Assembly: GCA_008632985.1 (NCBI GenBank)
Contig: QPGO01000034.1
Location: 201,311 to 265,310, forward strand
Length of the DNA: 64,000 nt
Origin: Psammoneis japonica
Lineage: Eukaryota
Direction of reading: 5' to 3'
Shown here one piece after another: positions 2,378-49,260 of this stretch. A program made the translations under genes and the position numbers. Numbering within the stretch: the first letter of the stretch is position 1; each line of letters starts with the position of its first letter. The notes beneath the pieces are model-generated. The model was not told the origin of the DNA and did not search any database. It was given only the letters and a program-made list of their open reading frames with translations.

Positions 2378-2925
2378 GTTATTATCTAACATTTTGATGT
2401 TGAAATAAGTGCGTTGTCCAGTTGGCGGCGCTCTCTGCTTCGCTCCAGCTTCAACACTCCTCGCTCGGAAGGCCTATGATGATTCCCGCGCGCTTTTTTG
2501 ATTTTTGCGGTTGAATGACATAGCGCCGCGGGCTGTGACAACCGACGACGCGCGCGCGAGGGTGCGAGAAATGCATGATGTGGAGACTCTACCGGTGCCG
2601 GTGCGACTCCTCGTGTGCGTGTGCCTGCTGCTGCCTGCGTTGGGGCCCAAAAAGATTGGCAGGCATGTGGTTGGAAAGGGCAAGACCAACATTGAGGCTG
2701 AGAAGCTGGGTGCCCCCCATGATTGGGGAGTTGAGGTGAAATGGGAGGAACCAAAGCAGTCAGGAGAGAGAGCTGTTTCCAGGTGACGGCGGCTTTGGGC
2801 AAGGAGGTCAGCCGAGAGTGAAGACACTCTGCCGCTCAGAAAAGATGAAAGTGCGCAGGGGTGGGAAAAGTCAGAAGGATCAGTCCAGGGAGACTTGGGA
2901 GGAGGGGCTGGGCAAGAAGCAGAAA

Positions 2926-2957
2926 TGTTGTTGTTGTTGTTGTTGCTGCTGCTGCTG
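2926..2957. repeat. (TGT)n(TGC)n microsatellite
   Basis: Direct reading of the sequence. Confidence 0.9.
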
Positions 2958-3004
2958 GGAGGGGGGGCAAACCAGCGTGTGTGTGCAGAGGGCAGGAAGA
3001 TGGC

Positions 3005-3230
3005 TGGGTGGAAGAAAACAACAACTCCTCACTGCTGTCTAAACAGCAGATGAGTCTCCATGCAGAGACCATTGCAGGAGCCAAAAGACTGGTGTCACGA
3101 TGTCAGTGCAACTGTTGTTGTTCTTGTGAGCCGAGTGGTGGCTCGAAAGCAAGCTGAGCTGAGCGGCACACGGAACTGAGGGCACACACAATTGTGTGTG
3201 ATGAACCAAAATCTTGTTCAAATCCTGTCA
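3005..3230 (-). repeat. 3' LTR of the Copia element
   Basis: Aligns by eye along its length with 10580-10804; TGACAGGATTT...CCACCCA on minus strand. Confidence 0.88.
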
Positions 3231-4503
3231 CTCTGCTCTAGTTTGCTTGAAAAGTCCACAGCAACAGATTCAAGGTCAGATTGGTTGAAAGCCTTGGGAT
3301 TGAAGTTCCAAAACATCAGAGGACGGAGGAGAGGTTCCAGACCTGGGAGCAGCCCCAGTGCTTGCTGAGAGTGTCAGCCGGGTTGCGGGAACCTTCGATG
3401 AAATGAAACTCAAGGAAACCAGAGGCAATCACCTCACACATGCAATGGAACAAGAGGGTGGTGTGTTGCTTGTGTAACTTGGAGTGCAGGACAGTGGCAC
3501 TGTCCACAACTGACTTGTTGTTCCCGAACATGTGACACATGTCACGCATGGGGATGCCAAGGCAACGCAAAGTGATGCGCAGATCAACGATTCTGTTCAA
3601 CAACTGTTGCTTGTTTCTTGGAGAACCAATCAACTGGAAACTTGTTGAGGAAAGAGTGTCCAGTGAGCATGTGACAGAGAACAAGTTTGCATCAAGAACA
3701 CAGTGGGTCATGGTGATGAACTTGCCAAGTGGCTTGGGCGCATCATGGGGAAGGAGCTCTTCTGCCTTGCCACACATGGATTGAGCCCAGTCACACACGG
3801 GCTTGGGGAGGTCCGAACAGCTGGGTTCCTCCGTGCACACTCAGAGGGCACCATGTTGCATCTTGGACAAGAATCTGAGGACATGTTTGGCGTGATCCAG
3901 ATGACCTTGACGGGGTGCTGCACAGAAGCCACACAGGGACATGGCGGCTGCAGTGATGTCAATGCAACCAAGCAACACAGCCCATTGCAGAGAACAAACC
4001 AAGGACTGGAGTTGATGGATGCCATTGGGTTCAAGCAATTTGGAGGTGTCAAGCTCAGGGTGGTCTCCCTTCTTGAGAGGGGAAAGCACGTCAGTGCGAG
4101 GCTTCTCCCCAAAGAGACAAGAGACGTGCACACAGTTGTCAACCATGCACTCAATGCACTTGTGTGGAGCAAGGCACAGGGTGCCATTGGAATCACGGGT
4201 GATGTTGCAGCCAAGGTGGAACTCCAATGGTCTGGTGCCCTTCAGCTTCAACCTGCATTTCTCTGTGAGAGTGTCTGCAAAAGCTTGGGGGTTCTTCATG
4301 GCAAAGGCTGGGTCATCCACATGCTCTGCCATGTGTTTGCAGTGGTCACCATTCTGGCACAACCAGATGTCAAATCAGCACGGCATGGCGAGATGCCTTT
4401 GGCACACAAGCAATTGGCAAAGGGTTCATGCCACCTGAGACTGGAGCTGCAGAGTCCACACAAGGCCTTGTGGATGACAAGGATGTGTCCTTCCAGCTCA
4501 CCA

Positions 4504-4957
4504 AACAATGGCAATCTTTTGTGCCATGTGGTCATGTGAAAAAATGCGCAGAAATTGTGCAGACCTGCACCCAAGAGAAATGTCAACATGTCTGTCTGTC
4601 TGCCCTCAGTGAATTTTAATTCTGCGAAAAATGGACTTTGCTGCCAACTGATCAGGCACATTTTAGAACAACACATTTGCAGAAATGCGCCTGATCAGTT
4701 AGCAGCAAAGTCCATTTTTGCACAAGTTTTGAGAAGACGACAGTTTTGGTGCAAAAATGTGTAGATTCAACTGATCAGGCGCATTTTGGAACAACACATT
4801 TGCAGAAATGCACCTGATCAGTTAGCAGCAAAGTCTGTTTTTGCACAAGTTTTGAGCAGACAACATCTTTGGTGCAAAAATGTGTGGATTCTGCAAACGT
4901 CCTCAAGCAATTTGTTGGTTTTGTGTTGCGGGTCATTTTTGAAAGATTCTCATTGTT
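4504..4957. mobile_element. MITE-like insertion in the Copia RT
   Basis: Splits the RT motif AGP|FGELEG. Imperfect terminal inverted repeats AACAATGGCAATCTTT / AAAGATTCTCATTGTT; internal ~124-bp tandem duplication. Confidence 0.7.
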
Positions 4958-7296
4958 GGGGCCAGCCATGATGCACAGCCAGTTTCTCCTTGGCAGCAGC
5001 TTTGAGACAGGCATTGCCAATGTTGGTTGCCCAAGTCTCCAGTTCACTGAGTTTGGCCAGGAAGATCATCAGCTGAAGGCCACAGAGAGACACTGCTCTG
5101 GAGCAGACACTGTTGACGGGCACATCTGTGAGGTGTCCATCGGCAACAAGTCACCCTTTGTGCCATCCGTTGTGTTTGATGTCGCAGACAAGATGCACTC
5201 TCCAATCATCTTGTGTCCTGCTGGGGTGCTGGAGTCCTTGTGGTGTCCGCAATCATGGAAGACCTTGCACTCACAAAGCTGAGTCATCTCAAGGTGGGTT
5301 GCATCTCCCCACTTCTTGTGGTTGCCATTGCACTCGTCAAGTGCCAAGGCATGCTTGCAGTCCCAGGGCACTTCACATCTGTGCTTGTGTTGTGGTGCAG
5401 CACAAAAAAAGCGTGGCTTGCCTTGGTTGGCCATGCGGAACAGCTTCTTCAGGCACAGGGCCACAGCTCAGAAGCATTTCCACCCTTTGGTCTCAAGCAA
5501 ACCATGCTCGAATGAGCAGATGGCACAGGTGATGGGAATGTCCTTGGCAGTGGTGGCAAGGGGTTCAGATGTGATCTCCCCATTCTCCCATTCAAGCATG
5601 ACATCGCAGCTTGAGCCTTTCCAAGAGGGGTCGTGGGGTCTCAACAGTCCTTCATGAAAAAAAGAATGCATCAGAACTTCCAGAGAGCAGAGTCCTTGTC
5701 TTCTTGCTCCATGTGGTGCATGATGTCATTGGCAGAAAGGATTTCCTCACATTCGTCATTGTCAACAGAGCAAATGAATTTGACCAGTTCCAGGTTGTCA
5801 CCAATTTCCCAGCAGCCATGGTCTTCAACTGCCTTGTCAATGCGGGCTCTGCAATGCCATCCATCCTCTTGTGGCTTCATGAGGAAGGTGCGTCCAATGA
5901 TGTCTTTGGGGTCAAAGTCTGGCATGTTGGGCATCCTGGTTGCCTCCCCATCTGGTGAGTCTGGTGAATCCTTGGAGTCGTGTCAGGATTTGATGACAGG
6001 TTCAGCAGATTTTTCATCAGGAGGGTCAAGATGCAAGTTGGAAGCAGACAGGTCACAGGCGGAGTGCATGCATGATTGGCAGAGGATCTTCTGGGTGTTG
6101 TCAGAAAGAATTTTGAACATCATGTGATGACCCATGTGTTTGGCAATGCCAACGAAGCAACCACGCAACTCGTGAGATTCAGATGACCAGCCGGAATCAT
6201 CCAGGTGGCAGCACATGGTTTCCACCGTTGAAAGCAGAGGAGGAGAGGGCTGATGTCGGGGGTGGATCTAGACAGCATTTTGGTGGGATTGCGCCAGCAA
6301 AGCTTGGCAGATGCCGTGTGGTTGAGCACAAACCACCACACGCACAAAAGGGCAAGAAGCCAGGTGCAGGCTGGGGATCCAAAGTGGTCTATGATGGTGT
6401 TGGCCATGTTCTTCACAGTTTGGCAGTGGCAGCAAGCAAAATTCTGGTGCTGTTGGTGGAGCTCGCTTTGCCAACTAGAGATGAAAAGGGCACAAAGGAT
6501 GCCAAGAACCTTGTTGCTGATCTAAATCTGGTGAGCACGATCGCTGATGAGCTTGGATGGAGCACCACGGTTGCGAGTGTTGTCTTTGAGCGTTTTGACG
6601 AATTCCTTGTCAGTCTTGGTGCCACACACATCCATGATGAGGGATTCTGTGCCAATCAAGAGCTGTGTGCTGACACATCTGGAGTCAATGGCAGGGATGT
6701 CAGAGCAGACTGTGTCAGCGGCAACGGGTTCATTGTGTTGGACATTGAGGGCTGGGTTGGGTGACTTGCATGCCTTTTTCAGGTGTGTGCTGGCAAGCAT
6801 GCAGGTGCACTGCGTCATGCAGTCAAAAGTGTGGTGAATGGTGTCCTTTGGGAGGAAGCCAAAACAAGGGTGGAGGGTCTCACAGTCGGGATCCTTGGGG
6901 TTGATCTTGCACTCTTGGCATTTGTGGAAGAAATCAGACATCAGAAAATTGCATTGTTGATGACATGTTGGCGACAATGGTTGCCAAACTCATCAAAGAG
7001 GTTGGCAGTTGGGTCATCTTGGAGGTCGGACACTGCATCACACCATGTCTTGTCTTTGGTGAACTGGCAGTTGAGGACAGATGGGCCCCATGTGTCATTG
7101 CCAGTGAGGACAACATGAGGCAGAGTGTCCCATTTGGCATTGGTGTGTGCGGGTGCATGGCAACATGCAGCAGGCCACCTTTGATGTTGATGGGGATGGC
7201 ACATCCATCAATGGTGGTGATGCACTGCAGGCCATTGGGAACCTTGATCAACCAATCATTGACATCATGTTTGCACCACTCGAGTTGGCCACAAGA

Positions 7297-8220
7297 AAAG
7301 AAGCTCAAAATCTGTTTTGCCGCTGCCTTGCTGCCGCCCACACCAACACCAACCATGGTGGACCCGTGCTCCCCAGTGCCCGTAAAGAGTGGCAGGGACA
7401 ATTTGACAGCCATTTGATTCATTGTCAAAGAACAATGCCTGTTGGATGTCACAGTTCAAAGTCGAAATGGCAACTGACCGGATGCTTGTCACATGGCAAA
7501 CACAGTTGCTGTGCCTCAAAGAATGGACAAGCCCAGCCACACACCACATGGGAGACACCAAAAATGAACACTGCAGAAACCAAACATGTGTCCATCTCCA
7601 AAGACAACATGCTTGAAGAGAATGTGAGAGAAATTCCTGGGATGAAAACATCCAAGAAAGACCAACATGGACCCCAACAAAGGAAAGGAAAAAATGATGA
7701 TTGGGATCATCGGGTGAAAATTCTGTCATGCATGATGGAATTGCACAGAAATTGTGCACTGAAGCTGCAACATCAAAGTGCAAGAGAAGCAAACACCATG
7801 ACTTGGAAATGCTGTCCACTTGGAAGACTTGTGAAGACCCACTTTGGGACACCACAGAAAATCCATCACAAACAACTGCAGTGCATTGGAAGAAAACTCA
7901 GAGGAAGCACATTGCTGAGAAACAAGAGGACAAACCTGACATGGTCATTGACTTGAAATTCTGGCTGAGCGCATGGAAATGCACATGAAATTTGTGCAGA
8001 AGGAACTGACTTGGAAATTGCTGAGTTGCGCAGAATTTTGTGTAGAAAAGACACTGAAATTGGAAGAAAATGCAAAGAGATGCAACACCATGGTGGTGCC
8101 GCACCTCCTGAATGCTGGCACAACAGAGTGTCCCTTCCAACACCTTTGGTTTTTCTGTCATTGGCGCAACTGCCTGGTGTCCCAAAGTGGACAACCCCAT
8201 GGGTGCTTGTGCAGAATTGT
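7297..8220. mobile_element. Unclassified ~0.92-kb insertion in Copia pol with 15-bp target-site duplication
   Basis: GAGTTGGCCACAAGA occurs at 7282-7296 and 8221-8235; removing the insert plus one copy restores ..HSCGQLEW.. of pol. Confidence 0.7.
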
Positions 8221-10579
8221 GAGTTGGCCACAAGAGTGTGTGGTCTTGCCCTTTCCAGTGCAGGCACGCTGGTGTGAAGAATGGCAATGATGGGTCCACG
8301 TTGTGTGTGTGTCACACCACTGGCAGCAACAATGGGGGTGTTGACAAGCTGGTGGTCATCAACACCCTGCACATCAACCTGGTGATCAGCGTGGGCCATG
8401 ACACAAACATCATCACCAGCAACACCACCCTTTGTGCCACAATCCATGAGAGCACCCTTGCAAGTTGAGTTGTGTGTCAAGGCAGAGCAGACAACATTGT
8501 GGTTGTTGACACAATGGCAAGTGTGACCATCAATCTCAATGTCAGTGGCAGCATCACAGAAGGATGTTGATCCAGAGGAGGTTTCTTGCCAGAGTGGGCC
8601 AAGGGTGGCTTGTCAAGTGCAAGGAGATGTTGCAAGTCACCAGGTGGCAGAGGCTTGTGCCTGGTGAGGTGCGCCAGGATGGGGTCAGCATCAGCTGCAT
8701 CAGATGCAGTGTTGGGTGGTTTGGGGACCGGCGCAAGATCGCGAGCATTGGCAGACAAGTTGACACCACCATCACTGCCCAGACAGAGGTTGTGCAGGTT
8801 GACTGCTGTTGAGTCATGGCAGTTGCCGGTGTGGGCAGTGCACAAGCCAAGAATGATGTTCTTGGTGGACTGAGGCAGATCTGGTGGGATGCAATGCCAT
8901 TGTTCCCTGGTGAGGGAGGAGGTGCCATGAGTCTGTGCAGCATGAGCTTGGATGGCATCAATGTCACTGTTGATGTCAAAGAATGCATCATCATCAGGGT
9001 CATTGGGGGCCAGGTCATGGGTGCAAATGGCATGGCGTGTGTGTGTGGGGTGCATGAGGCCATTTTCTTGGGGGTGAACATGCTGTTGCGCTGTGCCGCC
9101 ACGGAAAGCAGGAGCCCACAACGTTGCTTGTATGAAAGGCTTGCACCATTCTGTGTGCGACACTGGCTGGCTTGGTTCTTTGCCAAATGGAGTTCTTTGA
9201 TGGGGTGAATGGCATTCTCAAGCATGATGCATTTCTGGCTGGCAGAAAAGTGGTCCGCAGTTGGGATCAGAGCTTCATGCAGAGTTGGCTCTGCCAGTGA
9301 AGTGTGAAGGCATGGGTGGAGCCTTTCCAGGTGCTGTCACCAAGGCAAGCAGTGGCAAGGCAGTGAGGCACATGAGAAGGGTTGATGACTCAAGGGATGC
9401 ACAAGTGGATGCAAAGGTGCACTTGGACAGTTTGTGGCACACTGCTTGAGCATCAGAGGGGCCAACATGTTCACAAATGAGTGCCTTGCCTTTGTCATTT
9501 TGCAAGATGCATTTGAACATGGCAAACATGTGCTTCAGTTGTTTGGCAAACAGGGCCTTGTGCTCAGCTGTGGAGGGCTTGTTGTGTGTTGGATCAAGGA
9601 TGCGGTCAATGTCCTGAGAGCAGGGCCTGTGTGACAATGGAGGTGTGCCATGTGTGCCACGTTTGCCATTGTTTCTGGGACTTGAGAGTTGCGAAGGTGA
9701 GTGGATCACATTTGATGCCTCGTTTGAAGTCATGCCTGGGGTCACGTGATTTTGGGGGCAATGAGCCAGGTGCAGGAGAGCAGATGGTGCTGCACCCATG
9801 GAGACAGATGCTGTGTGCTTGGGACTGTGATGACAGTCAGCAAATTCTTCATGTGTGAACAAGGCGGTGTTGTTGCTGATGTCCATGCCTCTGCATGCAT
9901 TTGCCATGTGCAAACTAATTAGAGCAGCTGTCTGTGCTTTGTGTCCACGTGGCAAGGGCGTTTGATTGGTGCTGTCATTGTGAACCAGGGCATCAAGTTG
10001 CATCAGAGCAAACGTGAAGAGATCCTGGCATGAGTCTGTCCTGTCAATGCTGAGGGCACAGCACAATGGACTGTCCACAGCTTGGTTCAGAACAGTGCCT
10101 AAAATGTGCTCAAAGTCATTGGTTTGTTGCTGTCTGGTGAAGACCATGGTGCAACTGAGCAGGGTGTCGCAACTTGAGTTGGAGGATGGGCTCAAGTTAA
10201 CTTGAAGCTTGACTTAAAACTTGACTTGAAGTCTTGAACTGTCTTGCAAATCAGAAGCCACCAGGCTGTGACATCCTGTTTGTAGCTAAATGCCAAGCTT
10301 CCTGTCCAGCCCACAGAGTTGTGCCGGCACACCCAAACCCACAGCTGGCAGGAATTCCTGAGTGAACAAGTGTCCATTGAATGGATGTGTTTGGTGATGA
10401 AAGTCCTTGAACAGATCAACATGTGTCAATTGAATCCAACATCTGGCAGTGAGAAAGGTGGGGGCATGCACTTCCACCTCCAACAATGTGCATCGTTGAA
10501 AAATTTCTTGATGACAATGATGAATGCTCAATGGATGGAAATGAGCAAGACTGTTGATCTGACAAAAAATGAAGATGAC

Positions 10580-10804
10580 TGGGTGGAAGAAAACAATGAC
10601 TCCTTGCTGCTGTCTAAATGGCAGATGAGTCTCCATGCAGAGACCATTGCAGGAGCCGAAAGACTGGTGTCATGACATTGGTGCTGCTGTCATTGTTTTT
10701 GTGAGCTGAGTGGCTCAAAAGCAAGCTGCATTGCATGTTGCATGCAGAACAAACAACACACACAATTGTGTGTGACAAACCAAAATCATGTTCAAATCCT
10801 GTCA
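10580..10804 (-). repeat. 5' LTR of the Copia element
   Basis: Aligns with 3005-3230. Confidence 0.88.
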
Positions 10805-13800
10805 TGAGCAGCGATGTTGATGGCAAGGATGGTGTGTGCTCAGAAGGAGGGGCTTTGGGAGAGGTGGAGCTGGGTGCAAGTTCAATGCCAGCATCATCAG
10901 GCCTTTTAAGAAGGCAGTCCGAAAGGAGACTGGTGGGCTCAAGAAAGACATGGTGGCAGGATTGGCAAAGGCTGGAGAGAGGAGGGCAAGGACAGTTTGT
11001 GTGAGGACAGTGTGGATGGCATGTCCAGGATTTGATTGGATGGGGGGCCGACTGCATCCTCCTTCTCTGGCCCATCTGCCCACACTGCCAATCTTGCCTT
11101 TTTCATGGCTGCCTCTGCTGCCCTCCATCAAACTCCATCCACTCCACCCTTCTGCACTGCATTTTCTAAAAATGCACCCTCACAGGCCTTGCTTTGTGCC
11201 TTGTGCACTGCAAAATTCAGTGATCAACAAAAGAGCAGGTTGCAAAGATTGCTGTGGACAACAACTGCAAAACCACTTTTGAGTCAGCACTGCATGCTGT
11301 GAAGTGTTTGGTGGTTGCACAGATTTTGTGCTGGTGCACATGTGCAGATCACTTGACCTGCCAGCAAACAACAAGTTTTCCACAAGTTCATCTTGGCACC
11401 AGGCAAACATTGCGCAACAAGCATCTTTTTCCTTGAAGTCTTTGCAAGCTTCTTGGCACAAATTCACAGGCCACTTGAAAGTGTGAAATCCTTGAGATGC
11501 AGCCTTCTCACTTGTTGAAGATGATGTGCTGTCATGTCAGCGCATCTGTGCAAGTCATGCAGGTGCATCTTCCTTGGCCACAAACATCTGTGTGGCCAGG
11601 CTTGCTTGAAAACATTGGAAACAACATCAGCACCTCTCCAGCCATGAGCAGGGTCAATCATTGTTGCTGCTCAAAAAAAGAAGTGCAGCATTTTTTTCAC
11701 ATTTTGTTTGATGGCTTGCATGTCATCCCCTGTCAGATCTGCGTGCAAGGTTTCCCATGAAACAATCTCAGCCACCTGCTTCCTGGCAACTGTTTTCAGG
11801 TTGTCTTTTTTTTTCTTCTGACACAATCAGCGTGCACCACAGCTGATGTGCAGTGCCAGCCAAAGTGCTGGTCAACAGATGCTTCTGCTCATGCTCTCCA
11901 CCAGGACAATGGCCCAGCTCCTGAAAAGGGTGACACCAGAGCCAGCTGCCTGACCTGTTTCTGCAATGACTTTGACAAGACAACAATTTTGTCTTGTGAT
12001 TTCTTCTCCACAAAAAAAAAACTGTGTGCAAAGTGCTTGTTTGTGTGTGCAGGCTGTCTGCAATGGGTGCTCCTCATCCTTTCACTGTTGAGTTTAAATT
12101 TTCTTTAAGCCAGCACAGGGGCCATTTTGATTTTCTTGTTTGCCTCTGCTGCAAAAGCCTTGTGCAGCAGCAAAGAACAAATTTCTGGCACATTCATGAC
12201 CTGATTGGGTTGCAGTCAGCCTCCAAAGGTGAGCCAAGGTTGAGATGACTCAACACACAAGCAACTGGTCAAATTGCTTGGGTCTGCATTCTTTGCATGT
12301 CAAGCACCACAGTCCGTGCAACAGCTGGCACACCAGGTGCTTTGCGTGTGTGGTTTTTGTGGCCAGCAATGTGCAGGGTCATCTGTTGGTGGCCAAGGAG
12401 GGCACTCCTGAATTTTTTCATTGTTTCCCATGTCATCTCAAGCAATCACTCTGTTTCATCTGTCATCGCACAGCTCAGCTGAGTGCTGTCATTGAGATTT
12501 CTGTTGCAAAAGGCTGTGTTTGTCAACCATCTTGTGATGCCACTGCTCCAAAAATTGACACCTGGTTGCACCAGCATGCACTCTTTGAAAAGTTTGTCAG
12601 CAAAATCCCAACAAGCACACAAACAAACACAATCTCTTGCTTGGTGCTTCATGGCACAGCCAAATCTGACAAAACCTTGGCTTGTTGGTGCACCAACTTT
12701 GAGTTCTGCATCTTAAAGGCTCTTTTGAGAACCGCTGCATTGTCAAGCTTCTCAAAATGGTCTGAGAAAGCCCCCTTTGTTGAGCAAGAAAGTCATCTGT
12801 GTGCATGTGAACAGAAGACAAATCTTAAAATGGGCTGGACACTTTCTCTTGAAATGTGCCTCAGGTGCCACACAAGCCTGCCAGTGGGGGCAAACATTGC
12901 ATCTCATGATGCATTCTCCATGGAAAAATCAAACTGCAAAGCTTCTGCCAGGCATCACATTGAGCTGAACACAGCAGTGCTCCCCACATCCAAATCAAGA
13001 AAAGCAGCTCACTGAAAGACCTCAAGCTTTGCCCTTGGTGCGCCATGTCTGAAGAAGAAAGTCAACAAAGAAAAAGAAGTTTGGGTGCTGGGAATTTGAG
13101 TCTAAAAATCATGAGATTGTCTGGCCCCTTTGCAGCACTTTTCCACAACCTGCAGTCAACCATGGTGCCAAATGTGCTGTGCGTTCACAGCTCTCAGCAT
13201 TGTCAAGCAAACTGACATGACCGGGAAGAACTCTGTTGGTTTCTGCAGTGCTCCAACTGGATGCATTTTGATTGCACTGTGATCAGCTGCTTGCATTTTG
13301 TGGGCTCAATCAAATGCCAGTCACGCACATGACAGTGCGCACTCACACTCTGTCCAGACATCCATGCACCACCATGTGGAACAGACTCTGTTGTGCAATC
13401 ACCATGTTGCGCAGCTGCATCAGATCACCATCACAGTCAACAAAACACAAAATCCATTTTTAAGGCGCTGCTGTGCTTCTACTCTGCAACTCCGGCAACA
13501 AGCTGGCAGGTGATGCCGTGCCAAAGTAATTGGCAATTGTGCATGTTCCTTGCAACACCAAATGTTTTGCCTTGTGGATGCTGGATTTAAACATGGGTCG
13601 AACAACAGCCAACCAGTTTTGGAGCCTGTGAGTGGAGTGAGTGAGGTGCTCCTCTCAACAGAATTGAAAAGTTCTGCTCGGTCCTTGGCCAAGCAGTTGC
13701 CAGACCAAGAGTGAGTGTGTGGCCTTGACCTCTGCCTTGGTGTCCTGATGCTGCACTGATTTGCTGGTCTCAGAATTGCAACCATGGATGGCATCATTGT

Positions 13801-16800
13801 GTTGGTCCCATGATTCCCACCGCTGGTTCCATGTGTGGCTGCAGACAGTTGCAGCACAGTCAACTCCAGAGGTGTCACAATCTAGAGTTGCAACCATCTT
13901 CAAGTGATCAAGGTGCACATTGTTCCAAAAGAAGGAAAAGTGACCATTGAAAGGGTGTCATCACAGTCAACATCCAGCATGTGCTCAGAGCTGCACTCAT
14001 CATTTTGCAGGGTTGAGGAGCAGGACACAACTCAGCTCTGTTCTTGAGCCAAGTGTGGCAAGATGGTCTCCCTCTTCCAACACTCGCCTGAGGTGCCGCC
14101 ATCAAACAATGGTCTGTGCTTCATTTTTAGGGCAGCAAAAAGTTTTTTTGCTTTTGAAGATTACCCTGGCTTTTGGTGTTTTCAGCAACTTGAGGCAAAT
14201 CTACCACAGGTTGCATTTCACCATGACAGGAGGAATGGCCAACATTTTCTGAAGCACATTTCCAAATTTTTTGTTTTCTGGCAGCACTTGCACTCTCACA
14301 GGCAGTTCACCACACTGACCTTTGGCTGTCCAATGACTTGTTTGGAAAAGACAACACCATTTTGTTGAGATAGATTTCAATGTGTCTTGTCAGACAATCA
14401 TGTCACAGTTGATGAGCTTGCCCTTGTGTGAACAGGCTGATTTGTTTCAACACACTGCAGCTTCAGACACATTCTGATGACAACCTCATTTCAGTGTTGC
14501 ATTTTTTTAAGCCAGCAACTGCACTCTGTCCAGTGTGACTCTGTAGAATGTTTTTGCCAAAGCTCTTTGCAATGCTGGTTATCCATCAATGTGCAACAAG
14601 TGCTGTCACCTGGTGGAGCTCTCAAAATTTTTGTTTTGCCCTTGCCATGTGGGGTTGGCATTCAAGGCTGCAAACAAAACAGCCATGGCATGTTTCTGCA
14701 GCAGCTTGTGCACCTGGTTGATGCTCACCTTTCTGTTTTTCTTTTTTCTTAGAACCCTGGAAGAGAGCAGGCAGAAGAACAACTCTCTTTGTCAGCATGG
14801 TCACAGCTGCTGGCAATGCAGTGCACACGACATTGCCAAAATTTGTTGTTGACTTTGGTGGACATCTCTGCACACTTGCACATGCAATGGCGTTGATGTG
14901 CCTTGTGCACTGTGCTTTGTTGACAAACAAAAAAGCAGGTCACAAAGATCGCTGTTGGCAATCATTGTTGTGGTCATCAGACTGTTCTGAGTTGGCACGT
15001 TCTGCTGTGAAAGATTTGGTCACAGCAAGGGATCAACCTCACACATGTGCTTGTCTGAGTTTGTTCCAGGCTCATTTTGGTGCTTGGTGTGTGCTGTGCA
15101 GCACACATGTCTTTGTGTGTGAAGTCATTGCATGCATGTGGCATGGCTTCAAAGGGTGGCCAAGACTTCAATCCTTGCAGTGCAGCTTTGTTCACAGATG
15201 ACACAAAGCCATGCCAGTGCATGCATCTGGCTGCTCAGTGGCCTGTGGAGTGCAAGCCATGCAGGGCACAACACATGCACCACATTTGTGTTGTGCACTT
15301 GGTGCTTTCCGGCTGACTTCTGTTGAGGACTCCTGGCCATTTGTGTCCCTCTGACCGCCCCTCTCCAGCTGCAGCTGACAAAAAAATTCTGTGGATGGAA
15401 ATTTGCCACTTGGCTTTACAGATTTTGTGACATGCCTCAATGTTGTGCATCAACATGACAAATGTTTTGTTCAAATTGTGCAGTGCAGGGGCAACTGGTT
15501 GTTCCTGAGGGGCCCCATTTTGATTGCTGCTGTTTGCCACATCAAGAGCAGGCAAATCTTGCCAATGAGTGTCAACTTTTAACTCCTCTGCACTCACTGG
15601 GCTTGGCAGAGGATGACTCAACACAAGCAACCAGCTAGATGGAACACAGACAACACAACATGTTCCATGCCTGACACTTCCCAACCCAAACAAGAACCAG
15701 ACACAATGGCGGCACTGTTTTCAAAACACTCTGTCACAACGACAGGTCAGAGCAAACAGAAGATCACCAACATCTTGCAAGTGACCACTGCACAGCCAAG
15801 GTCACCTGTGCCATCTGTCCAGGCCTTCAACAGCCCCCCCAGGTTGATCCAGCAAAAGCAGCACCCCCCTTTGTCCAGCCAAATGAGCTCAGTTCTTGGG
15901 GCTGTGCCCTGCCTTGAGCACATCCTCATTTGAGAGCCCCTCTGCATTTGCTGCTGGTGCAGGAGCATCAGGGGAACAATCAACTTCCCAAGCTTTTGCA
16001 TCAAGAGAAGTCCTGAGGACCAGCAGCAGTTCAATCCATCACTGGCAATTGGCCCAGCTTTGGGGGATTCACCATGCACAGAAACCTTGCAGTAAAAAGA
16101 ACAGGAAGGTGACTGGAGAGAAAAAACCAACAATCAGATGATGTCAAATTGAGACCACCAACCCTGTTTTGATCACATTGAGGGGTCCTCAGAAGTGCCA
16201 CCCACCGCCAAATGCATCTGATGTTCAGAGCAATTTTTGGCAAGATGTCAGAGTGTCTCACAAAAAGTCACACAAATGTCTCACACTCAGCACACACAAA
16301 ATGAAGTTGCACATCTGATGTCACTTGGAGCAAAACAGCAGCTGCTCACAGCAATTTGCTCAAATTTTGGTGGTGAAAGAAGGGTTGACACTGAAACAAT
16401 CAAACAACACTTTGCACCTTGCTGCACCAGCATCACCCAAGCACTTTTGTTGCTCTCCCTCTTTCCTCACTCTGTGAAACAAGGCAAGAGCATCTTGAGG
16501 GAGAGGGGCACCACACACCAGGGTTGTCAAACCAGCCACACAAGCAGATTGCCAATGCATGAAAGTCACGAACAATGTGCCAGACAAGCAGCACATTTTG
16601 CTGACACAGTGCTTCACAAAGTGAGCACAACAGGGTCAGCAGTGTTTGCAGCATGTCTTGCTGCAGCACACATTTTTGTCAGAGGGGGCACTGCTTTTTG
16701 CTTGTGGTGGCATGGCATTGCATGTGTCTCCTGCAAGATGGCACTGTGAGGCCAATGGCAAAGTGCTTTCTGTGCAAGGCATGGCACAGTGCTGCACATC

Positions 16801-19560
16801 ACATGATGTGTGCTTCCACCACCTCCCAAGAGACAAAGGAGAGGGGCCGCAAACCATGCATTCTCTGCTCAAAAAGTGCGCTGCCCCCAAGCAACATTTT
16901 GCTGATGCACAGCAGATTGCTGCCAGTGCTGCTGTCACAAATGTTTGCAAATGTGCCACCTGTCATGTGCTGTCAGGAAGAGCACTGCTGCTGCTCACAT
17001 GTGCAGACAAATGAGCCCCATGTGGCAAAAAGCTGCACCCAGGGAAGTGCTTGCACACCACGGCAGGAGCACCAGCTGCTTGATGCTCAGCAGCAACAAG
17101 TGGCCTGCATGCTTTTCTTCAACAAGCTTTTGCCTTGTGCACACAAACTTGAAGTGTGAGCAGCAGACAGCAGAGCAAAGTCTTGTGTGTTGAAAGAGCT
17201 GAAGGCTCTTGTGTGGGGCTTGTGGTCAGCTGCTGGCAGTGCTTGGGGTGCTTTGTTTTTTGGCAAGTGGGCAGCACATCGCCAACTTGCCCAGGGCAAT
17301 TGTTTGCATGTGGGCTGCCATGCACTGCTCAGCACTCAGCATTGTGGGAACAAGGCGGCTCCCCTGCAACAGTGTGCAGATTGTCATTTTGCTGGCAGCA
17401 GCTGCTGCTCACTGCCCCCACGTGCATGTTTCTTAAAGGAGGGAGTGTCTGACCTTCATCAAGGGTCAACTCCTCAAACGGAAAATTCTTTGGGCCAGTT
17501 GGTGACCGTTTGAATTTAGCGGTGAGTGAAGCAAGCCTCAGTGCACAAAAGTGACCCAGATGTTAAATCTTGAGTTTGTTGAAAGCACCGCGACATCACA
17601 TTGTTGCGACGGTTGTTGTCAATCAACCACGGCACCTTTGGCGCAAGTCACAGAACACAACATCAACATCACTCCTGTTTCTTTTTTCATTCTCAACAAT
17701 GTTTCCACAATCTGTCCAACAAGCTTGGCCACATTTTGTGTCAACGAGAGTGTTGTGGATTTGTGGTTTTGTCAAAGTGTGCCAAAAAACCGATTGTGCG
17801 ATTCGAGACAGGTCAGTGCTGTTTTGATTGTCAGCGGTGCTTTCACCACTTTTCTCACTTCTTTTTTGTTTTTCATCAATGTTTTTTGCAGAAAATTCAA
17901 AGACATGGAACATTTTTGTGGCAATCTACAATCTGCTGCACCACTTTTGGGAAGAGCAGCATTGCTGGAGGCACATGTGATTGGTGTGTTGGGGACAAGG
18001 CATCATGTGATGGCAACACTCTGTGGTGGAAATGCAGGTGGCACTTGTGACAGAAAGGCAAACAGCTGTGGGAGGAAGTGAAACATGAGAAGATGGGGTG
18101 GAATCATTGCAAGCAGGGACATCCTGCTGGCCGCAACAGTGGCATGGCATTGACTGGTTCCTTGGCAGCACGTGCAGGCAAGCTTCCTCCAGCCACACTT
18201 TGTCAGCAACTCCTGGTGAGTGGGAGAGAGGGAGTGCACTCTCGTTGGTCATTCTCGTCCTCTCTGGCCTCTCGACTCCACTGCCTTTTTGCCGGCAATG
18301 CTCTGCGGATGTGGCAGCTGGAGAGCAGATTGATGAGAAAATGCACAGGGCCCCACCTTGTTGTGACAAATTGACCTGCAAGCTTGCTCTAATCTGATGG
18401 AACTTGATGACCGATGCGTTGCCTTGGTGGTGTGCCCTGCTGCCACATCAAGATTTGTTTTCATCATCAACAATGAAAAACAGAAGAAAGCTGCTTGGTC
18501 GAACTGTCCACTTTTTGAAGAGACTGCTGCAGACTGTGCCTGGAACACACTCACCCACCTGTTTTCTGCATTTGCCATGGCTGAGGCGCACCAGAAACAA
18601 CTCAACTCACTTGCAGCATCAGCTCAAATCACATTTCTCCATTCAAAATTCTGCTTCATGGGCCAAAGCACAGGATTTTTTTCATGGAATGACAACCATG
18701 TCAGCAAAAGCAAATTGACAACACCGTGGCTGACAACCCGCATTGTTTTGCATCTTAAAGCAAAAACTGAGATTGCTGGCACTTGCACCTTCCCTGCTCT
18801 CATCACAAGCACCATGCGCCAAATGACTTGAGTTTCATGTGGCCGCATGGAGCCAAACAGATCTCGCCATCAACCAATCTGGAGAGCAACAACAACCCAG
18901 CAGAGACATCACTGCAATCGGCGTTGCTCGCTGACACAGCGAGCGTCTGGTGGAGCTGAGCAACACTTGTGGTGCAAAAGCCAGAATTGTTTGTGATGCG
19001 AAAGCTGGGGTGCAGCGTGGTTTCAAACAGGGCTTTCTCTTTGACAGCCCCCCCCCCCCTTGCTCACCTCGAAAGAAACTCTTTCCACTTCCCATGAGGA
19101 GCCACAGCAGTGCGAGGCCATCTCCAGCACCTTTCCTGGTGCCGCCGTTGCTGCCATGTTTGCTGGCCATGGCGAAGAGTGTGGCCGCAATCGGCACTGT
19201 CTGACAGCAATCGGCGCTGTCTGACAATGTGCTGTGTTTCGTTGGCCTTTTCTTTTTTAAAAATTTGGATGTGATGGACATGTCTCGCACAAATGCAGCA
19301 ATGCTGCTTTTCTGCAAATTGGCCACATCCACAAAAGAGAAGCAATTTGTTGTTGCGATTTTCCAGAGGTCCAGAAAACCAGCAGCATCGGAATGTCTGC
19401 AGGTCAACCCGAGGTTGCCCCAAGTGATGTCCGTTGAGAAGGGTTGTGCGAACACAAACCACCAACTGGCACGAAAAGCTTGCCCCTCAAACAGTGTGTC
19501 CTCCTGAAACCGTTCCGGCATTGAAGACATTTGTCGAGAACCTGCTTGATGCCTTGCCAA
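10805..19560. other. TpA/CpG-depleted decayed sequence of unidentified (probably repeat/TE) origin
   Basis: Same TG/CA-rich composition as the adjacent Copia; no protein motif I can recognise with confidence. Confidence 0.55.
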
Positions 19561-40779: not shown

Positions 40780-41169
40780 TGTGCACGTCCTGCGTCCTGA
40801 TCTCGGAATTAGTTTTAGGATTTCTTGACTGCGACTCTGGGCCTACGGTACAGCACTTTAGCTACGGTAGTGCGGTACGGTGTGGGCGAGTGGGCCGTCG
40901 CTACTACTCCACTGCCACCACTAGAGTGGAGGCATCCGAGGTGAAAATCTGACGTGTGCATGTGGTGAAAGTGCTGAGCAAGTGTGGTGAATCATCGCGG
41001 CCGCGATGCTGAAAAGAAGACACCATTGCACCACATCATCAAAAGAATGTAAAGAGACATGAGATCACCATCATTAAGATCTACGTTAAAAATCTAAAGC
41101 ACTGGTTTTTAAACACACAATTGCATTGAAACCCCCAAGCAATCTCTCCACGAGTCGTCACCGGTCATC

Positions 41170-42690
41170 TCAAGATGTCCCACTGCCGACAGCTGGTGTG
41201 TTGCACAGGCTCCAACCACTGCCAGTGCCAGCAGCAAAAAACCTCCCACCACCACCAGACCTGGCATTGCACAAAAACTCCAACTGTCGCCAGTGTCGGC
41301 AGCAAAAAGGCTCTCACCATCAGCAGCAACACAAAGGGGGGCCTCCCACCACCGCCACGAGTGCTGGCAGCGACCAGGCTCTCCAACCCCGCCACCACAT
41401 GGCCATCTGTGCAAGCAGTGCAAAAAGGCTCCCACCACCACCAGAGCTGCCGGACAAAAAAGATCCAGCTGCCTCAACAGCCAGCAGCACACAGGCAGCA
41501 CACAGGGGCAGGTGTCGCTGCCAGGAGACAAAAAGGATCGAACCACCTCAATGGTCAGCAGCACACAGGCTCCCACCACCACCAGTGCCAGTGGTCATGC
41601 ACAGGCTCCCACCACCACAACCACCATGAGTGCCAGCAGCAATGCGCAGGGGCAGGTGTCACCACCAGATGAAAAGGATCCAACCACCTCAACAGTCAGC
41701 AGCACACAGGCTCCCACCACCACCAGCGCCAGCAGTTGCACACAGGCTCTCACCACCACAACCACCACAAGTGCCAGTGGCACACAGGGGCAGGCACTGC
41801 TGCAAGACAAAAAGGATCTAGCCACCTCAACAGTCAGCAGTGCACAGAGGCTCCCACCACCGCCCGTGCCAGTGGTCACACATGGGCTCCCACTGCCACA
41901 ACCACCACGAGTGCCAGCAGCATGCAGGGGCAGGTGTTGCCACCAGACAAAAAGGATCCAACCACCTCAACAGTCAGCAGCACACAGGCTCCCACCACGA
42001 CCAGTGCCAGTGGTTGTGCACAGGCTCCCACTGCCACAACCACCATGAGCGCCAGCAACATGCAGGAGGGCACGTGTTGCCGTCAGATGAAAAGGATCCA
42101 ACAGCCTCAACAGCCAGCAACACACAGGCTCCCACTGCCACCAGTGCCAAAGGTTGTGCACAGGCTCCCACCCCCACAACCACCATGAGCACCAGTGTCA
42201 CACAGGGACAGGCACTGCCACCAGACAAAAAAGATCCAATTGCCTCAACAGCCAGCAGCGCAGGCTCCCACCACCGCCACCAGCTCCAGCAGCTGCAGGC
42301 TCCCACTGCCACCAGCGCTGCAGCAATGGTGCACAGGCACCTGCTGCCACCAGGGCTGGGGCCCCAGTGGCAAAAGGTCCAACTGCCTCCAGCACCAGTG
42401 GCATGAGCTCCCACTGCCACAACTGCCAGTGTCTGTGCACAGGCTCCCACTTCTGCCACTGCCATGGCAGCAGCACACAGGCTCCCACTGCCACCAGTGC
42501 CCACAGCAAAAGGCTCCAACCGCCTCCAGTGCCAGCAGCACACAGGTGCCCACCACCACCACTGCCAGCAGTTGTGCACAGGCTCCCACTGCCACCACTG
42601 CCAGCAGCACACAGGCTCCCACTGCCGCCACTGCCAGCAGCAAAACACCTCCAGTCACCACCAGCCAGTGCCAGCGGCGTGCAGGGGCAC
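41170..42690 (+). repeat. Degenerate tandem array, ~140-bp period built from CACAGGCTCCCAC subunits
   Basis: AAAAGGATC-like anchors near 41531, 41672, 41811, 41950, 42090, 42229. Confidence 0.85.
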
Positions 42691-42691
42691 C

Positions 42692-43138
42692 TGCAATGTG
42701 CAGCTGCTGACAAGAGTCAACGCATCACGGCGACGTGTCACAGCCTTTAAATGTCACAAAGGGCGTGACAAAAACAACCTTTTGTCTGCATGCATGCTGC
42801 GTTGTGAATTCATGGCGGAGTGGTTCATCGCAGCCATTGGGCAGGAGGCCAGGGGTTCGAAACCCTGAGTGGGAGTTGTCTGCAGCAACGTTGATCACTG
42901 TCGAACGCGTGAAACTCTGTGCAGTTCTGTGTGTTCCTTCGCACGCACCCACACTGTTCCGCCAAAACCGTGCAGTGTCAGCACACGTTAGCAAAGAGCC
43001 GTGTGGATGCATGACACATGGGGAGGAGTGCAATGTGCAGCTGCTGACAAGAGCCAATGCATCACGGCGACGTGTTGCAGCCTTTAAATGTCACAAAGGG
43101 CGTGACAAAAACAACCTTTTGTCTGCATGCATGCTGCA
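42692..43138 (+). mobile_element. TRIM-like miniature LTR element with internal tRNA-type A/B boxes
   Basis: 110-bp direct repeats 42692-42801 and 43029-43138; PPT GGGGAGGAG at 43020-43028; CACC on both flanks. Confidence 0.8.
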
Positions 43139-44872
43139 CACCCACCAACACCAGACAAAAAGAATCCAACCACCTTGAACGCCGGCAGTGCACAGGCTCC
43201 AACCGCCGCCAGGGCAAAAGCAGCAAAAGGCTCCTGCTGCCACCAGTGCTGCCACATTCAGTTCTGCCATGCACATGAAATCTCATTTTGAAAACAATGC
43301 CATTGGACACCGGAGATGCCGCCAACGAGGCAGCTCTCTTTCAAAGTTTGCAACACGTGTTGTCACATCAAGAAGCGCGTGCTGTGGCGTGGCACTGCGG
43401 GAATGCACTGAAGACACCACCGCTGCATCGTCATCATGAAAGCACCATTTGCATTGGTCCAACGCAAATTTGAACAAGCTGGTGGTGCAACCGCCATTTG
43501 TGCCACCCCACATGACTTTGCCTGTGCAGAATCCTGCGCACAAGTTTGCAAATGCATGGAAGGACAGGCTGAGTGCAACCATTCCCCATTTGCACTGTGA
43601 CGCACACCCCCAATGTTCACAAACAAATGGCTCAATTGCACAACAAAAAAAATCATCACAAAGGAGAAAAACTGGAGGTGCACTCATGCGGTGCAATCAA
43701 GGCGTGGTTGTCATGCACAAGTTTCATCATCTGTGCACATGAAATTTGAGTGGATTCTGGGTGCCATGTGGTGGGGTTTTGTTGTCTTGTCATCTTGTCA
43801 GTTTGGCACCAGTGGTCTCTGTGGACAGCAAATGCATTTGTTTAAAACATGAATGCATGCTTGAGGTTTCAAGAGCAAAAAAACTGTCCTTAAAAGCAGG
43901 GCTCATTCTGGCTGACATCATCAATGGTCAGCACAGGAAAGCTGTTAGCTGCTGGGACATGAGCTGCCAATTGCTGACAGCTTTTTTGTTCCTCACCACA
44001 TGTTCTTTCCACCACAAGAGAACAGCTCATGATCCAGATGATTGCTTGCTTTTCACTGTGCTCCACTTTTAAGTGGTGCTTTAACACGTCATTCAAACAC
44101 ATCATCTTGTCAACAACATTGCCATGGCCAATCAACTGCTGGCTGAGCACATCAAAATGCAATCTGCCAACAAATGTCTCACCAATCCCATGTCCCAAAC
44201 ATTCATTCTGAAATGACATGCATCCCACATGCACAGACACATCACGTTCTCTTCTTGTCCTCCCATCGCCACCAACATGGGCAATGCCAAGCATTGCCTG
44301 GCATTCAACATCAACAAGAATGCCATCAAGAGCACATCTGTGTTGACTCGTGCCAATTGCCTCACCATCATGGGGAATCTCACGAATGCCATCAGCCTTG
44401 TTGAAGTCAAGACTGACAAATTCAAAGCCATGTCTGGCAAGAATTCTCTGAGCAATCTCACCCAGAACTGCCTTGATGATGCAGGCCAACTCAAGCCAAT
44501 CCAAGATGGGCCAGTTGCAGATTGTTGCCCTGATGGAGTCATGCATGCCAAGATCAAAGGCATCATCATCAATCTTGCCTCCCTCAGCAAATCAGTCAGG
44601 AACCCTGCAATCATCTTTTTCATTTTTATTTGTTCACCAAAATGGATGATGCCAATGCAACCAATGCTGCAGAAAACACAGCCAACCCATTCATGTTCAG
44701 TGGCCCAAGCAACTGCATGATGCCAGAGGATCAAGCCTGTCAGGACCTCATCTGCAACAAAAACAATGACAATGCCATCCAGGAGCCATTCAATCTCCAA
44801 GCGCCCAACTTCATGAATCCCAATGAAGCCACCATCTGTGCCAAGGCAAAAGGTGTGAGGATCAACATGCTT

Positions 44873-45350
44873 GTCACTCAAGCAGGATGCAATGTCATCT
44901 TCAATCTTCATGCCCATCATGCCTGCATTTGCAGATGACCCATTCAAGATGCTCAGCAGAGTCCATCAGACTGCTGCTCAGTCAGATGGAGCCATCCAGA
45001 TGAACAAGAAACTCTCCAACCCACCAGAGACTGCTGAAAAGGACCAAGGAGAGGCAGATGACTTGACATCAGAGACTGAGCAGGAGGAACAAAAAGCAAA
45101 TAAGAGCTGGTCACTCAAGCAGGATGCAACGTCATCCTCAATGACATCTTCATGCCCATCATGCCTGCATTTGCAGATGACCCATTCAAGATGCTCAGCA
45201 GAGTCCATCAGACTGCTGCTCAGTCAGATGGAGCATCCAGATGAACAAGAAACTCCCCAACCCACCAGAGCTGCTGAAAAGGACCAAGGAGAGGCAGATG
45301 ACTTGACATCAGAGACTGAGCAGGAGGAACAAAAAGCAAAAAAGAGCTGG
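44873..45350. repeat. ~238-bp tandem duplication
   Basis: GTCACTCAAGCAGGATGCAA..AAGAGCTGG at 44873-45109 and 45110-45350. Confidence 0.88.

Positions 45351-49227: not shown

Positions 49228-49260
<33 letters not shown>

Follow-up and report, generated by a model that had tools for sequence, protein, structure and literature searches.

The 64-kb window, by which we mean the whole stretch of pennate diatom DNA analysed here, contains three transposon islands (~2600-19500, ~41150-54500 and ~58250-59450) that are nearly devoid of the dinucleotide TA and are also poor in CpG. Across the islands the observed-to-expected ratio (o/e) is ~0.05 for TA and 0.1-0.6 for CG, and TG/CA is raised about twofold; pooled over the three domains (counted within 2750-19450, 41250-54450 and 58300-59450), only 111 TA remain in 31,055 bp. 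The first island (D1, 2600..19500) has per-kilobase TA o/e of 0.01-0.11, CG o/e of 0.06-0.36 and TG/CA of 1.6-2.4. The second (D2, 41150..54500) is likewise delimited by its dinucleotide composition, and the short third (D3, 58250..59450) has TA o/e of 0.15 and CG o/e of 0.22. Depletion is restricted to repeated or foreign DNA and spares the neighbouring genes: TA and CG counts flip within 100-200 bp beside intact genes, including an HMG-box gene and an APG6/Beclin gene. AA/TT and AT show no depletion in the islands, and island GC equals that of genes (0.46-0.52, except for a tandem array at 0.61). The initial annotation placed the depletion at 3005..10804; it extends well past these coordinates, and the loss of CpG in the same domains was absent from that account.

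The element at 2996-10804, on the minus strand, is assigned from its RVT_2-type polyprotein and flanking LTRs to the Ty1/copia LTR retrotransposons, in agreement with the Copia label it had been given. Using tblastn with intact homologues (P0126), residues 143-1878 of a 1,884-aa polyprotein align collinearly on the minus strand at 3301..9728, a degraded gag-PR-INT-RT-RNase H region broken by frameshifts and TGA stops. Reading through 3319-4374(-) gives 352 aa that match ~1,890-aa proteins with PF07727 (RVT_2; E down to 1e-105), and the open reading frames of the element itself returned no Pfam match. The 3' LTR (2996..3230, minus strand) matches the 5' LTR (10571..10804, minus strand) at 82% over 237 bp. 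Coverage of the polyprotein has a gap at 4511-4965, where an insertion splitting the reverse transcriptase region carries a 124-bp tandem duplication (4645..4891; self-match 4645-4768 / 4768-4891, 92%).

Only 23 TA remain in the 7,809 bp of this element, against ~303 if TA were as dense as in gene regions of the window (1,173 TA in 30,207 bp) and ~376 if it were as dense as in 79 metagenome-derived related Copia loci (21,810 TA in 453,186 bp), both baselines being stand-ins for the true ancestors. The survivors comprise CTAA/TTAG (10), TTAA (3), CTAG (3), CTAC/GTAG (3), GTAA/TTAC (2), ATAG/CTAT (1) and ATAC/GTAT (1), with none in ATAT, GTAC or ATAA/TTAT. The predominance of the first three classes (16 of 23) bears out the initial annotation, and its four example sites are all present (TCTAAA at 3040, TTTTAAT at 4617, ATCTAGA at 6269 and ACTAATTAG at 9916/9920). 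In the polyprotein, not one of 50 conserved Tyr columns retains Tyr (24 Cys, 13 His, 13 other), and Arg is kept at 16 of 70 conserved Arg columns.

Depletion is equally strong in the remainder of D1 (10805..19500), unclassified sequence with TA o/e of 0.04-0.06 and CG o/e of 0.11-0.22. This part is mostly single-copy in the contigs of the source run (word depth ~68 versus thousands over the Copia element), and Pfam scans of its open reading frames, and of those in D2, gave zero matches. D2 holds a tandem repeat array (41420..42678; GC 0.61, TA o/e 0.026, self-matches at offsets of ~140-560 bp) and two elements, E2 and E3, bounded by LTR-like direct repeats. Those of E2 (45234..45797 and 48558..49053) are 83-87% identical, and those of E3 (49253..49656 and 52936..53318), the younger pair, 89-97%.

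Survival of TA depends strongly on its flanking bases. Against the two baselines, and with unclassified sequence included in the islands, RTAY is the most depleted class (3 of ~358-506 expected, 0.6-0.8%), mixed contexts are intermediate (41 of ~613-745, 5.5-6.7%) and YTAR is the least depleted (67 of ~236-244, 28%). Equal depletion across the NTAN classes was not seen (likelihood-ratio statistic against uniform depletion 155 with the gene and 165 with the Copia baseline, 3 df), and the spectrum of surviving contexts departs from both baselines (chi-square 289 for genes and 251 for related Copia, 9 df). The pattern is present in D1 and in D2 taken separately. The initial claim that TAY/RTA is lost and YTAR spared was thus right in direction, but its purine/pyrimidine split is too coarse: within YTAR, CTAG survives at 12-15% and TTAA at 52-81%, and ATAT and TTAA lie more than 100-fold apart.

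A model of two independent half-sites fits these data, with additive loss rates (gene/Copia baseline) of 0.20/0.37 for TAA, 1.10/1.01 for TAG, 1.82/1.93 for TAC and 2.96/3.12 for TAT. The order at +1 is therefore T > C > G >> A. At +2, A is disfavoured: TAAA survives at 0.39-0.44 versus 0.09-0.19 for TAAB, TACA at 0.09-0.10 versus 0.02-0.04 for other TAC sites, and TAGA at 0.20 versus 0.02-0.03 for TAGG. At 0.02, TACG has one of the lowest survivals, but loss is no slower in TAT contexts, and G at +1 is tolerated. Within LTR pairs, 3/4 TA positions are common to both copies and all lie in CTAA/TTAA; these are ancestral rather than new, although some surviving TAs could still be newly created.

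The lost dinucleotides became TG or CA by transition, as seen in the 37 of 50 conserved Tyr that are now Cys or His and in the raised TG/CA, with LTR differences in agreement and decaying CG feeding the same products. The neighbour that decides is the one directly 3' of the mutated A or, equivalently, 5' of the T on the other strand. TAT codons went to Cys and His at 10:2 and TAC codons at 14:11; by preceding base, His and Cys stand at 5:2 after A and 3:13 after C. The fates of these codons, at 37 informative sites judged on present-day flanks that may themselves have mutated, have a log-likelihood of -23.25 when the neighbour 3' of the mutated A decides, -33.36 when that 5' of the T does and -25.65 with no context, a margin of 2.4 log units over this null. 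Additionally, the least enriched products are TGA/TCA (1.10x) and ATG/CAT (1.15x), and TGC/GCA is enriched 2.32x. Of the initial proposal that the mutated base is the A of 5'-TAY-3' on either strand, the role of the 3' neighbour thus stands, whereas A in TAN and T in NTA are inseparable by sequence. We infer that adenine is the base attacked.

Loss of TA occurred after integration. The two LTRs of a retroelement are identical at integration, and a CA/TG doublet between copies requires that they started from the same TA or CG and that opposite strands were then hit. Such doublets number 25 over the 1,010 aligned bp of three LTR or direct-repeat pairs, whereas 2,000 column shuffles average 1.2 and never exceed 6; the same pairs hold 32 other transitions and 23 transversions. 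The elements are old and the alignments uncertain in parts. The Copia LTRs (alignment A1) contribute 8 doublets plus 6 CG<->TG/CA sites, and the E2 repeats (A2) contribute 10. The E3 repeats (A3) have 7 doublets, 9 sites with CG in one copy, 8 shared CG and 2 shared TA (both CTAA/TTAA); from these CG counts we estimate that only ~1 of the 7 doublets is attributable to CG. TA poverty is not a trait of the Copia family, since intact relatives have normal TA (o/e 0.31-1.0 over the 79 related loci, with no 500-bp window below 0.2). Comparison of the window with contigs from its own sample, in which alleles, copies and errors are indistinguishable, listed 40 differences, 9 of them TA<->TG/CA and 14 CG<->TG/CA; TA<->TG and CA<->TA sites are among those that fall in the single-copy part.

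TA loss outruns CpG decay, and the two can be told apart. CG survival varies only 2.6-fold by context (0.20-0.52), as opposed to the more than 100-fold range of TA. The whole E3 element (49253-53318) combines TA o/e of 0.11 with CG o/e of 0.58, and the two signatures stand apart in public relatives. Among 150 of these, 12 have <1% Tyr, and several of the 12 show conserved Tyr changed to Cys or His with Arg mostly kept (in P0357, Tyr changed at 14 of 15 sites and Arg kept at 7 of 12). Other relatives show the opposite (in P0271, Tyr kept at 9 of 10 and Arg changed to C, H, Q or W at 10 of 13). Methylation of transposons is known in diatoms, and a slower, nearly context-blind decay of CG to TG/CA running alongside would be expected from cytosine methylation of the islands. 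Such decay accounts for the slow, weakly context-dependent CG loss but cannot remove TA.

We favour, at a probability of about 0.6, a repeat-targeted enzymatic hypermutation of TA after insertion, superimposed on slower methyl-CpG decay, with adenine deamination as the probable chemistry. Because A>G on one strand is indistinguishable by sequence from T>C on the other, thymine-directed chemistry is equally compatible with the mutations themselves and, by strand symmetry, accounts for all the counts no less well than attack on adenine does. Oxidation of the thymine of NTA in silenced DNA, for example by a TET/JBP-type enzyme, to 5-hydroxymethyluracil (5hmU) or another base then misread or misrepaired to C, would mean that the base 5' of the T is preferred in the order A > G > C >> T, and dinoflagellates do hypermodify thymine with a dinucleotide preference. 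We nevertheless consider this unlikely: we know of no pathway for clean conversion of a modified T to C, repair by a 5hmU glycosylase should also yield transversions and indels rather than the clean Cys and His changes at Tyr columns, and the literature matches listed for 5hmU concern dinoflagellates, with no diatom report among them. Less probable again is an N6-adenine methyltransferase marking island TA, the methylated A being then deaminated or miscopied so that mutation is a by-product of an epigenetic mark, as for 5-methylcytosine. The parallel with CpG decay in the same domains, and the coincident edges of the two signatures, count in favour of such a mark. However, to our knowledge eukaryotic 6mA lies at ApT rather than TpA, a point also made in the initial annotation, and is not strongly mutagenic, TA loss outpaces CG loss with far greater context dependence, and public relatives can carry either signature without the other.

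The remaining alternatives fare worse. Editing of retrotransposon RNA or cDNA by an ADAR- or APOBEC-like enzyme, which would make copies TA-poor on arrival, draws on the facts that the best-characterized element is a retrotransposon and that it belongs to a family with many copies in the source run. It is very improbable given that LTRs of one element, identical at integration, differ by CA/TG doublets, that the tandem array, the unclassified single-copy sequence and sequence outside LTRs are equally depleted, and that TA<->TG and CA<->TA differences from same-sample contigs fall in the single-copy part. We give just as little credence to an origin with no dedicated enzyme, through selection against TA, GC-biased gene conversion or some bias in the chemistry or repair of heterochromatin. 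In its favour is a mild, general shortage of TA, whose o/e is ~0.55 in genes of the window and ~0.66 in the related Copia loci. Against it stand the survival gap between ATAT and TTAA and the sharp edges beside genes. Selection on the elements cannot be acting, since frameshifts, TGA stops and the loss of every conserved Tyr mark the copies as dead, and undepleted AA/TT and AT with unchanged GC indicate that there is no general AT-to-GC drive. The preference for an enzyme over GC-biased drift expressed in the initial annotation therefore holds.

Under the favoured reading of enzymatic TA hypermutation, 5'-TA-3' would be converted to TG or CA within defined domains after insertion, with the strands hit independently and the rate set by the two bases 3' of the adenine, such that TAT and TAC vanish and TTAA and TTTAAA largely survive. 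The likeliest chemistry would be enzymatic deamination of adenine to inosine in DNA, the inosine then being read as G, by a putative tRNA-adenosine-deaminase-like protein directed to silenced repeats. No deaminase domain was found among the genes within the 64-kb window. Together, the TA and CG processes would drive both self-complementary dinucleotides to TG/CA and wreck the coding capacity of the elements. We infer both the enzymatic origin and the manner in which the islands are targeted.

Fungal RIP is a comparable process in that it hypermutates repeats by transition after integration with a dinucleotide preference, kills transposons and leaves compositionally distinct islands. Its signature is close to the reverse, however: RIP changes C to T mostly at CpA, makes TpA and lowers GC, and is linked to sexual reproduction and to sequence duplication. 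RIP itself was rejected here, as TpA is depleted rather than in excess, CpA/TpG is enriched and GC is unchanged, without AT enrichment. TadA, ADAT2-ADAT3 and TadA-derived DNA editors share with the diatom footprint a T or U before the target adenine (strict by construction in our analysis of TA), but the diatom footprint lies on chromosomal DNA in defined domains. The eukaryotic tRNA anticodons with A34 presumably do not follow the order T > C > G >> A. This order also differs, together with 'not A' at +2, from the known TadA motif, as wild-type TadA depends on UACG and TadA-8e favours UA (text excerpts of PMC12296453). The comparison with TadA drawn in the initial annotation remains a lead, the contexts lost in the islands being compatible with its native motif without being diagnostic of it.

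The only close precedent that we found in the literature is a 2026 preprint on Bigelowiella natans (10.64898/2026.01.13.699255). Its main text describes, in mutation-accumulation lines, A>G/T>C changes in integrated viral DNA, solely at TpA and at a rate of ~6e-7 per site per generation, and proposes a DNA adenine deaminase as the cause, with an ADAT2-like candidate; long-term TpA-poor, CpA+TpG-rich clusters are enriched in reverse-transcriptase and transposase domains (10.64898/2026.01.13.699255). As in the diatom, TpA goes to TpG/CpA and the changes are confined to foreign or selfish DNA. In contrast, B. natans is a chlorarachniophyte (Rhizaria), its targets are NCLDV and virophage insertions, its mutations were directly observed rather than inferred from sequence, and its depletion is partial (Rho TpA 0.45 in an NCLDV region), whereas the diatom islands are near saturation. 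The main text of the preprint contains none of the terms 'flanking', 'trinucleotide', 'TTAA', 'CpG' or 'diatom', and to that extent its account covers neither the 3' hierarchy nor the survival of TTAA nor a CpG decay running in parallel.

We tentatively suggest, at somewhat less than even odds, that diatoms possess a DNA adenine deaminase system directed at repeats or heterochromatin, with the footprint T-A-(T>C>G>>A)-(not A) and a common origin with the TpA hypermutation of Bigelowiella. If true, the diatom system would be the adenine counterpart of fungal RIP, and would represent an old genome-defence pathway of SAR lineages that has been overlooked in one of the best-studied algal groups.

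TA is scarce throughout three transposon islands (D1, ~2600-19500; D2, 41150-54500; D3, 58250-59450), where its observed/expected frequency (o/e) is mostly 0.01-0.1. CG o/e in the same domains is 0.06-0.6, TG plus CA stand near twice expectation, and G+C is unchanged despite the depletion. The initial annotation had located the loss at 3005..10804; depletion is present there, but the feature is much larger and spans all three domains. At the island boundaries TA and CG counts change together within 100-200 bp. Edges adjoin an HMG-box gene and an APG6/Beclin gene, and D3 is sharp at both ends; immediately beside this TA-free island, 58000-58250 is very TA-rich (25 TA in 250 bp). The window is nuclear DNA of a pennate (raphid) diatom. 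Its gene regions are tightly packed and carry long open frames; their TA o/e is ~0.45-0.95 and their CG o/e ~1.0. They include a 601-aa POT transporter gene, whose best relatives share 51-60% identity (those named being Cylindrotheca, Fistulifera, Seminavis, Amphora and Bacillariaceae), and one gene with a DUF6824 domain. A Pfam search gave no family for the 467-aa open frame at 24953-26353 (-) in a gene region, and no match for ORFs of the left flank and at 18838-19662.

The degraded Copia element in D1 (2996-10804, minus strand; LTRs 2996-3230 and 10571-10804) retains 23 TA in 7.8 kb, against 300-375 expected. Sixteen of these 23 are CTAA/TTAG, TTAA or CTAG, as the initial annotation had claimed for most of them, and its four example sites were all found. 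No ORF of the element has a Pfam transposon domain, and neither do any of 89 D1 ORFs or of 65 ORFs spanning D2 and the right flank. Sub-threshold Pfam matches on island ORFs are to Cys-rich families alone (fn1, phospholipase A2), and we take them to be artefacts of Tyr/Arg-to-Cys changes. The element was recognized by read-through of 3319-4374 (-), which matches ~1,890-aa RVT_2 proteins at 49-50% identity, and by tblastn with a ~1,890-aa homologue, of which residues 143-1878 are collinear across 3301-9728 with frame changes. Its reverse transcriptase region holds an insertion of ~450 bp (4511-4965), within which 124 bp are duplicated in tandem (4645-4768 and 4768-4891, 92% identical); several of the TAs still present in the element (TTAG, TTAA, GTAG) lie in this insertion.

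The Copia family is highly repeated, with a word depth in the thousands against ~68 for the rest of D1 (depth among contigs, possibly those of the source sample). The segment at 10805-17500 is depleted of TA and CG to the same degree as the Copia element, yet is single-copy (depth ~68) with no recognizable domain; this points either to repeat DNA of great age or to a process that needs no present-day repetition. D2 contains two LTR-like direct-repeat pairs and a tandem array (41420-42678; GC 0.61, TA o/e 0.026) with self-matches at offsets of ~140 bp and multiples. On its plus strand the array has 17-21 CA against 2-7 TG per 100 bp, a strong strand asymmetry that the rest of the islands do not share. 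In the younger LTR-like element of D2 (49253-53318), (GA)n microsatellites (49245-49330 and 52936-53000) flank the direct repeats, and a 75-bp segment is common to 49253-49327 and 53244-53318 at 97%.

Loss of TA depended steeply on sequence context. Survival by NTAN context, computed against the window's genes and against 79 related Copia loci (values in that order), was 0.81 and 0.52 for TTAA, 0.20 and 0.21 for CTAA/TTAG, 0.12 and 0.15 for CTAG, 0.11 and 0.10 for GTAA/TTAC, 0.08 and 0.06 for CTAC/GTAG, 0.04 and 0.03 for ATAA/TTAT, 0.03 and 0.02 for ATAG/CTAT, 0.02 and 0.01 for GTAC, 0.006 and 0.004 for ATAC/GTAT, and 0 by both for ATAT. By class, with R a purine and Y a pyrimidine, 3 of ~358-506 expected RTAY sites survive, 41 of ~613-745 mixed sites and 67 of ~236-244 YTAR sites. 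Equal loss in all contexts is rejected (chi-square 251-289, 9 df; likelihood-ratio statistic 155-165, 3 df), and the pattern is found in D1 and D2 taken separately. The count proposed by the initial annotation thus came out as it had expected, RTAY being most depleted and YTAR least. Its purine/pyrimidine rule has the right direction and is too coarse, as the dependence is graded (T > C > G >> A) and the second base counts. All 16 counts are reproduced by a model in which the strands are hit independently and the base following A fixes the rate; its fitted loss rates are 0.2-0.4 for TAA, 1.0-1.1 for TAG, 1.8-1.9 for TAC and 3.0-3.1 for TAT. An A at the second base after TA raises survival several-fold within the TAA, TAC and TAG classes, and occupies that position in 54% of surviving half-sites against a 24% baseline. 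TATA, itself made of two TAs, has zero survivors, and TACG ranks with the most strongly depleted contexts.

Survival counts by themselves do not separate an effect of the base after A from one of the base before T, but the mutation products do. In the Copia reading frame TAT codons became Cys in 10 cases and His in 2, and TAC codons became Cys in 14 and His in 11 (Tyr codons 'followed by' T or C, respectively); a preceding A gave His 5 : Cys 2, and a preceding C gave Cys 13 : His 3. With the fitted rates, the log-likelihood is -23.25 for the base after the mutated A, -33.36 for the alternative and -25.65 for no context. Of all trinucleotides in the islands, TGC/GCA shows the strongest enrichment (2.32x); within the TG/CA class, enrichment is weakest for TGA/TCA (1.10x) and ATG/CAT (1.15x). 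The enrichment order is exactly that predicted from the base after the mutated A. These products agree with the earlier proposal that A is mutated and its 3' base decides. By strand symmetry, however, an attacked thymine fits equally: a thymine-directed modification that prefers 5' neighbours in the order A > G > C >> T is possible and matches the same survival and product data. A 6mA-dependent route to TA mutation is also possible.

The loss is mutational and took place after insertion. A family that was TA-poor by nature is ruled out because the 79 related metagenome Copia loci have TA o/e of 0.31-1.0, and none has a 500-bp window below 0.2; as best matches to intact proteins, these loci provide a baseline and could not reveal hypermutated copies. 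At 50 Tyr columns conserved in an alignment of 16 intact homologues, the window copy retains none: 24 have become Cys, 13 His, 3 Trp and 10 other residues. Of 70 conserved Arg columns it keeps 16, while 17 now read Cys, 14 read His, 6 read Gln and 4 read Trp (with TGA translated as Trp). Cys and His for Tyr, and Cys, His, Gln and Trp for Arg, are what a single transition makes of TAY and CGN. The three LTR or direct-repeat pairs hold 25 doublets, CA in one copy opposite TG in the other, in 1,010 aligned bases (mean 1.2 and maximum 6 in 2,000 shuffles). They additionally differ by 16 CG<->TG/CA, 1 TA<->TG, 32 other transitions and 23 transversions, some in poorly aligned stretches. Each doublet requires an ancestral TA or CG that mutated on one strand in the first copy and on the other strand in the second. 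As the LTRs of one element are identical at integration, these changes post-date insertion, which contradicts RNA or cDNA editing before integration. Selection on the elements is contradicted because the copies are dead, and GC-biased conversion because AT and AA/TT content is normal, in line with the initial annotation's argument against GC-biased drift. UV photoproducts at TA were dropped, since they would not stop at island edges. In single-copy D1 (11091-16010 and 18714-19226), same-sample contigs differ from the window at a few sites (among the 40 listed of 1,831 differing places in total), and many of these are TA/CG<->TG/CA, for instance TTATC/TTGTC (14581) and TGCAG/TGTAG (15178); they may be alleles produced by ongoing mutation, or assembly noise.

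Survival of CG ranges narrowly with context (0.20-0.52), as expected of methyl-cytosine decay. The youngest element, at 49253-53318, has a TA o/e of 0.11 against a CG o/e of 0.58, and its repeats have 8 CG in common and only 2 TA (both CTAA/TTAA). Thus, TA loss is the faster process. It is also separable from methyl-CpG decay, as the two signatures are found apart in public proteins. Among the best 150 of 3,797 public cluster representatives matching the query, where median Tyr content is 4.0%, 12 have <1% Tyr and 7 of these have none. Conserved Tyr became Cys or His at 14/15 positions in P0357, 10/11 in P0256 and 5/5 in P0329, with Arg kept at 7/12, 9/15 and 5/6. Five other relatives (P0271, P0286, P0359, P0258 and P0388) show the reverse pattern, with Tyr mostly kept and Arg changed to Cys, His, Gln or Trp at the majority of conserved Arg columns. 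These five thus mirror the first three, showing CpG decay in the absence of TA hypermutation. P0357 derives from an ENA contig and P0409, another Tyr-free relative, from a JGI contig; a search of viral_contigs with two Tyr-free proteins gave no DNA match.

A TA-restricted, transition-only, strand-independent and saturating change, with a two-base 3' footprint and in sharp-edged islands, is what a repeat-directed enzyme would leave. Such an enzyme, aimed at silenced repeats, would alter TA within the islands, probably by deaminating adenine in DNA to inosine, which would then be read as G. Adenine deamination is the most economical chemistry. The tRNA adenosine deaminases target A after U; wild-type TadA requires UACG and evolved TadA prefers UA (PMC12296453).

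As far as our searches show, TA-specific hypermutation of selfish DNA has been described once before, in a 2026 preprint on a chlorarachniophyte; a full-text literature search for TA hypermutation in diatoms found no report, the nearest being this preprint. A>G/T>C changes made up 230 of the 231 mutations that arose in two integrated viral regions of Bigelowiella natans mutation-accumulation lines; all 230 fell at TpA, at ~6e-7 per site per generation, and the genome carries TpA-poor, CpA+TpG-rich clusters (10.64898/2026.01.13.699255). Its authors put forward an ADAT2-like candidate enzyme, and the main text of the preprint makes no use of 'flanking', 'trinucleotide', 'TTAA', 'CpG' or 'diatom' (10.64898/2026.01.13.699255). 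That text offers a candidate enzyme and no extended context, whereas our case offers a diatom, saturation and a two-base downstream context. We file the window as a diatom instance, at saturation, of this TpA hypermutation, to which it adds the downstream footprint and the separation from slower CpG decay.

Fungal RIP is a functional analogue, with a nearly opposite signature. The two-base downstream footprint provides an in vitro criterion for any candidate enzyme, and a natural chromatin-acting DNA adenine editor would be of interest for base editing. Hypermutated elements are missed by domain-based annotation, as with this near full-length Copia that lacks any Pfam match. Additionally, hypermutation yields long, stop-poor ORFs that are Tyr-free and rich in Cys and His, which gene callers deposit as proteins in public databases. 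Diatoms dominate ecologically and include genetically tractable species, so that knock-outs could reveal both the enzyme and how it is targeted.
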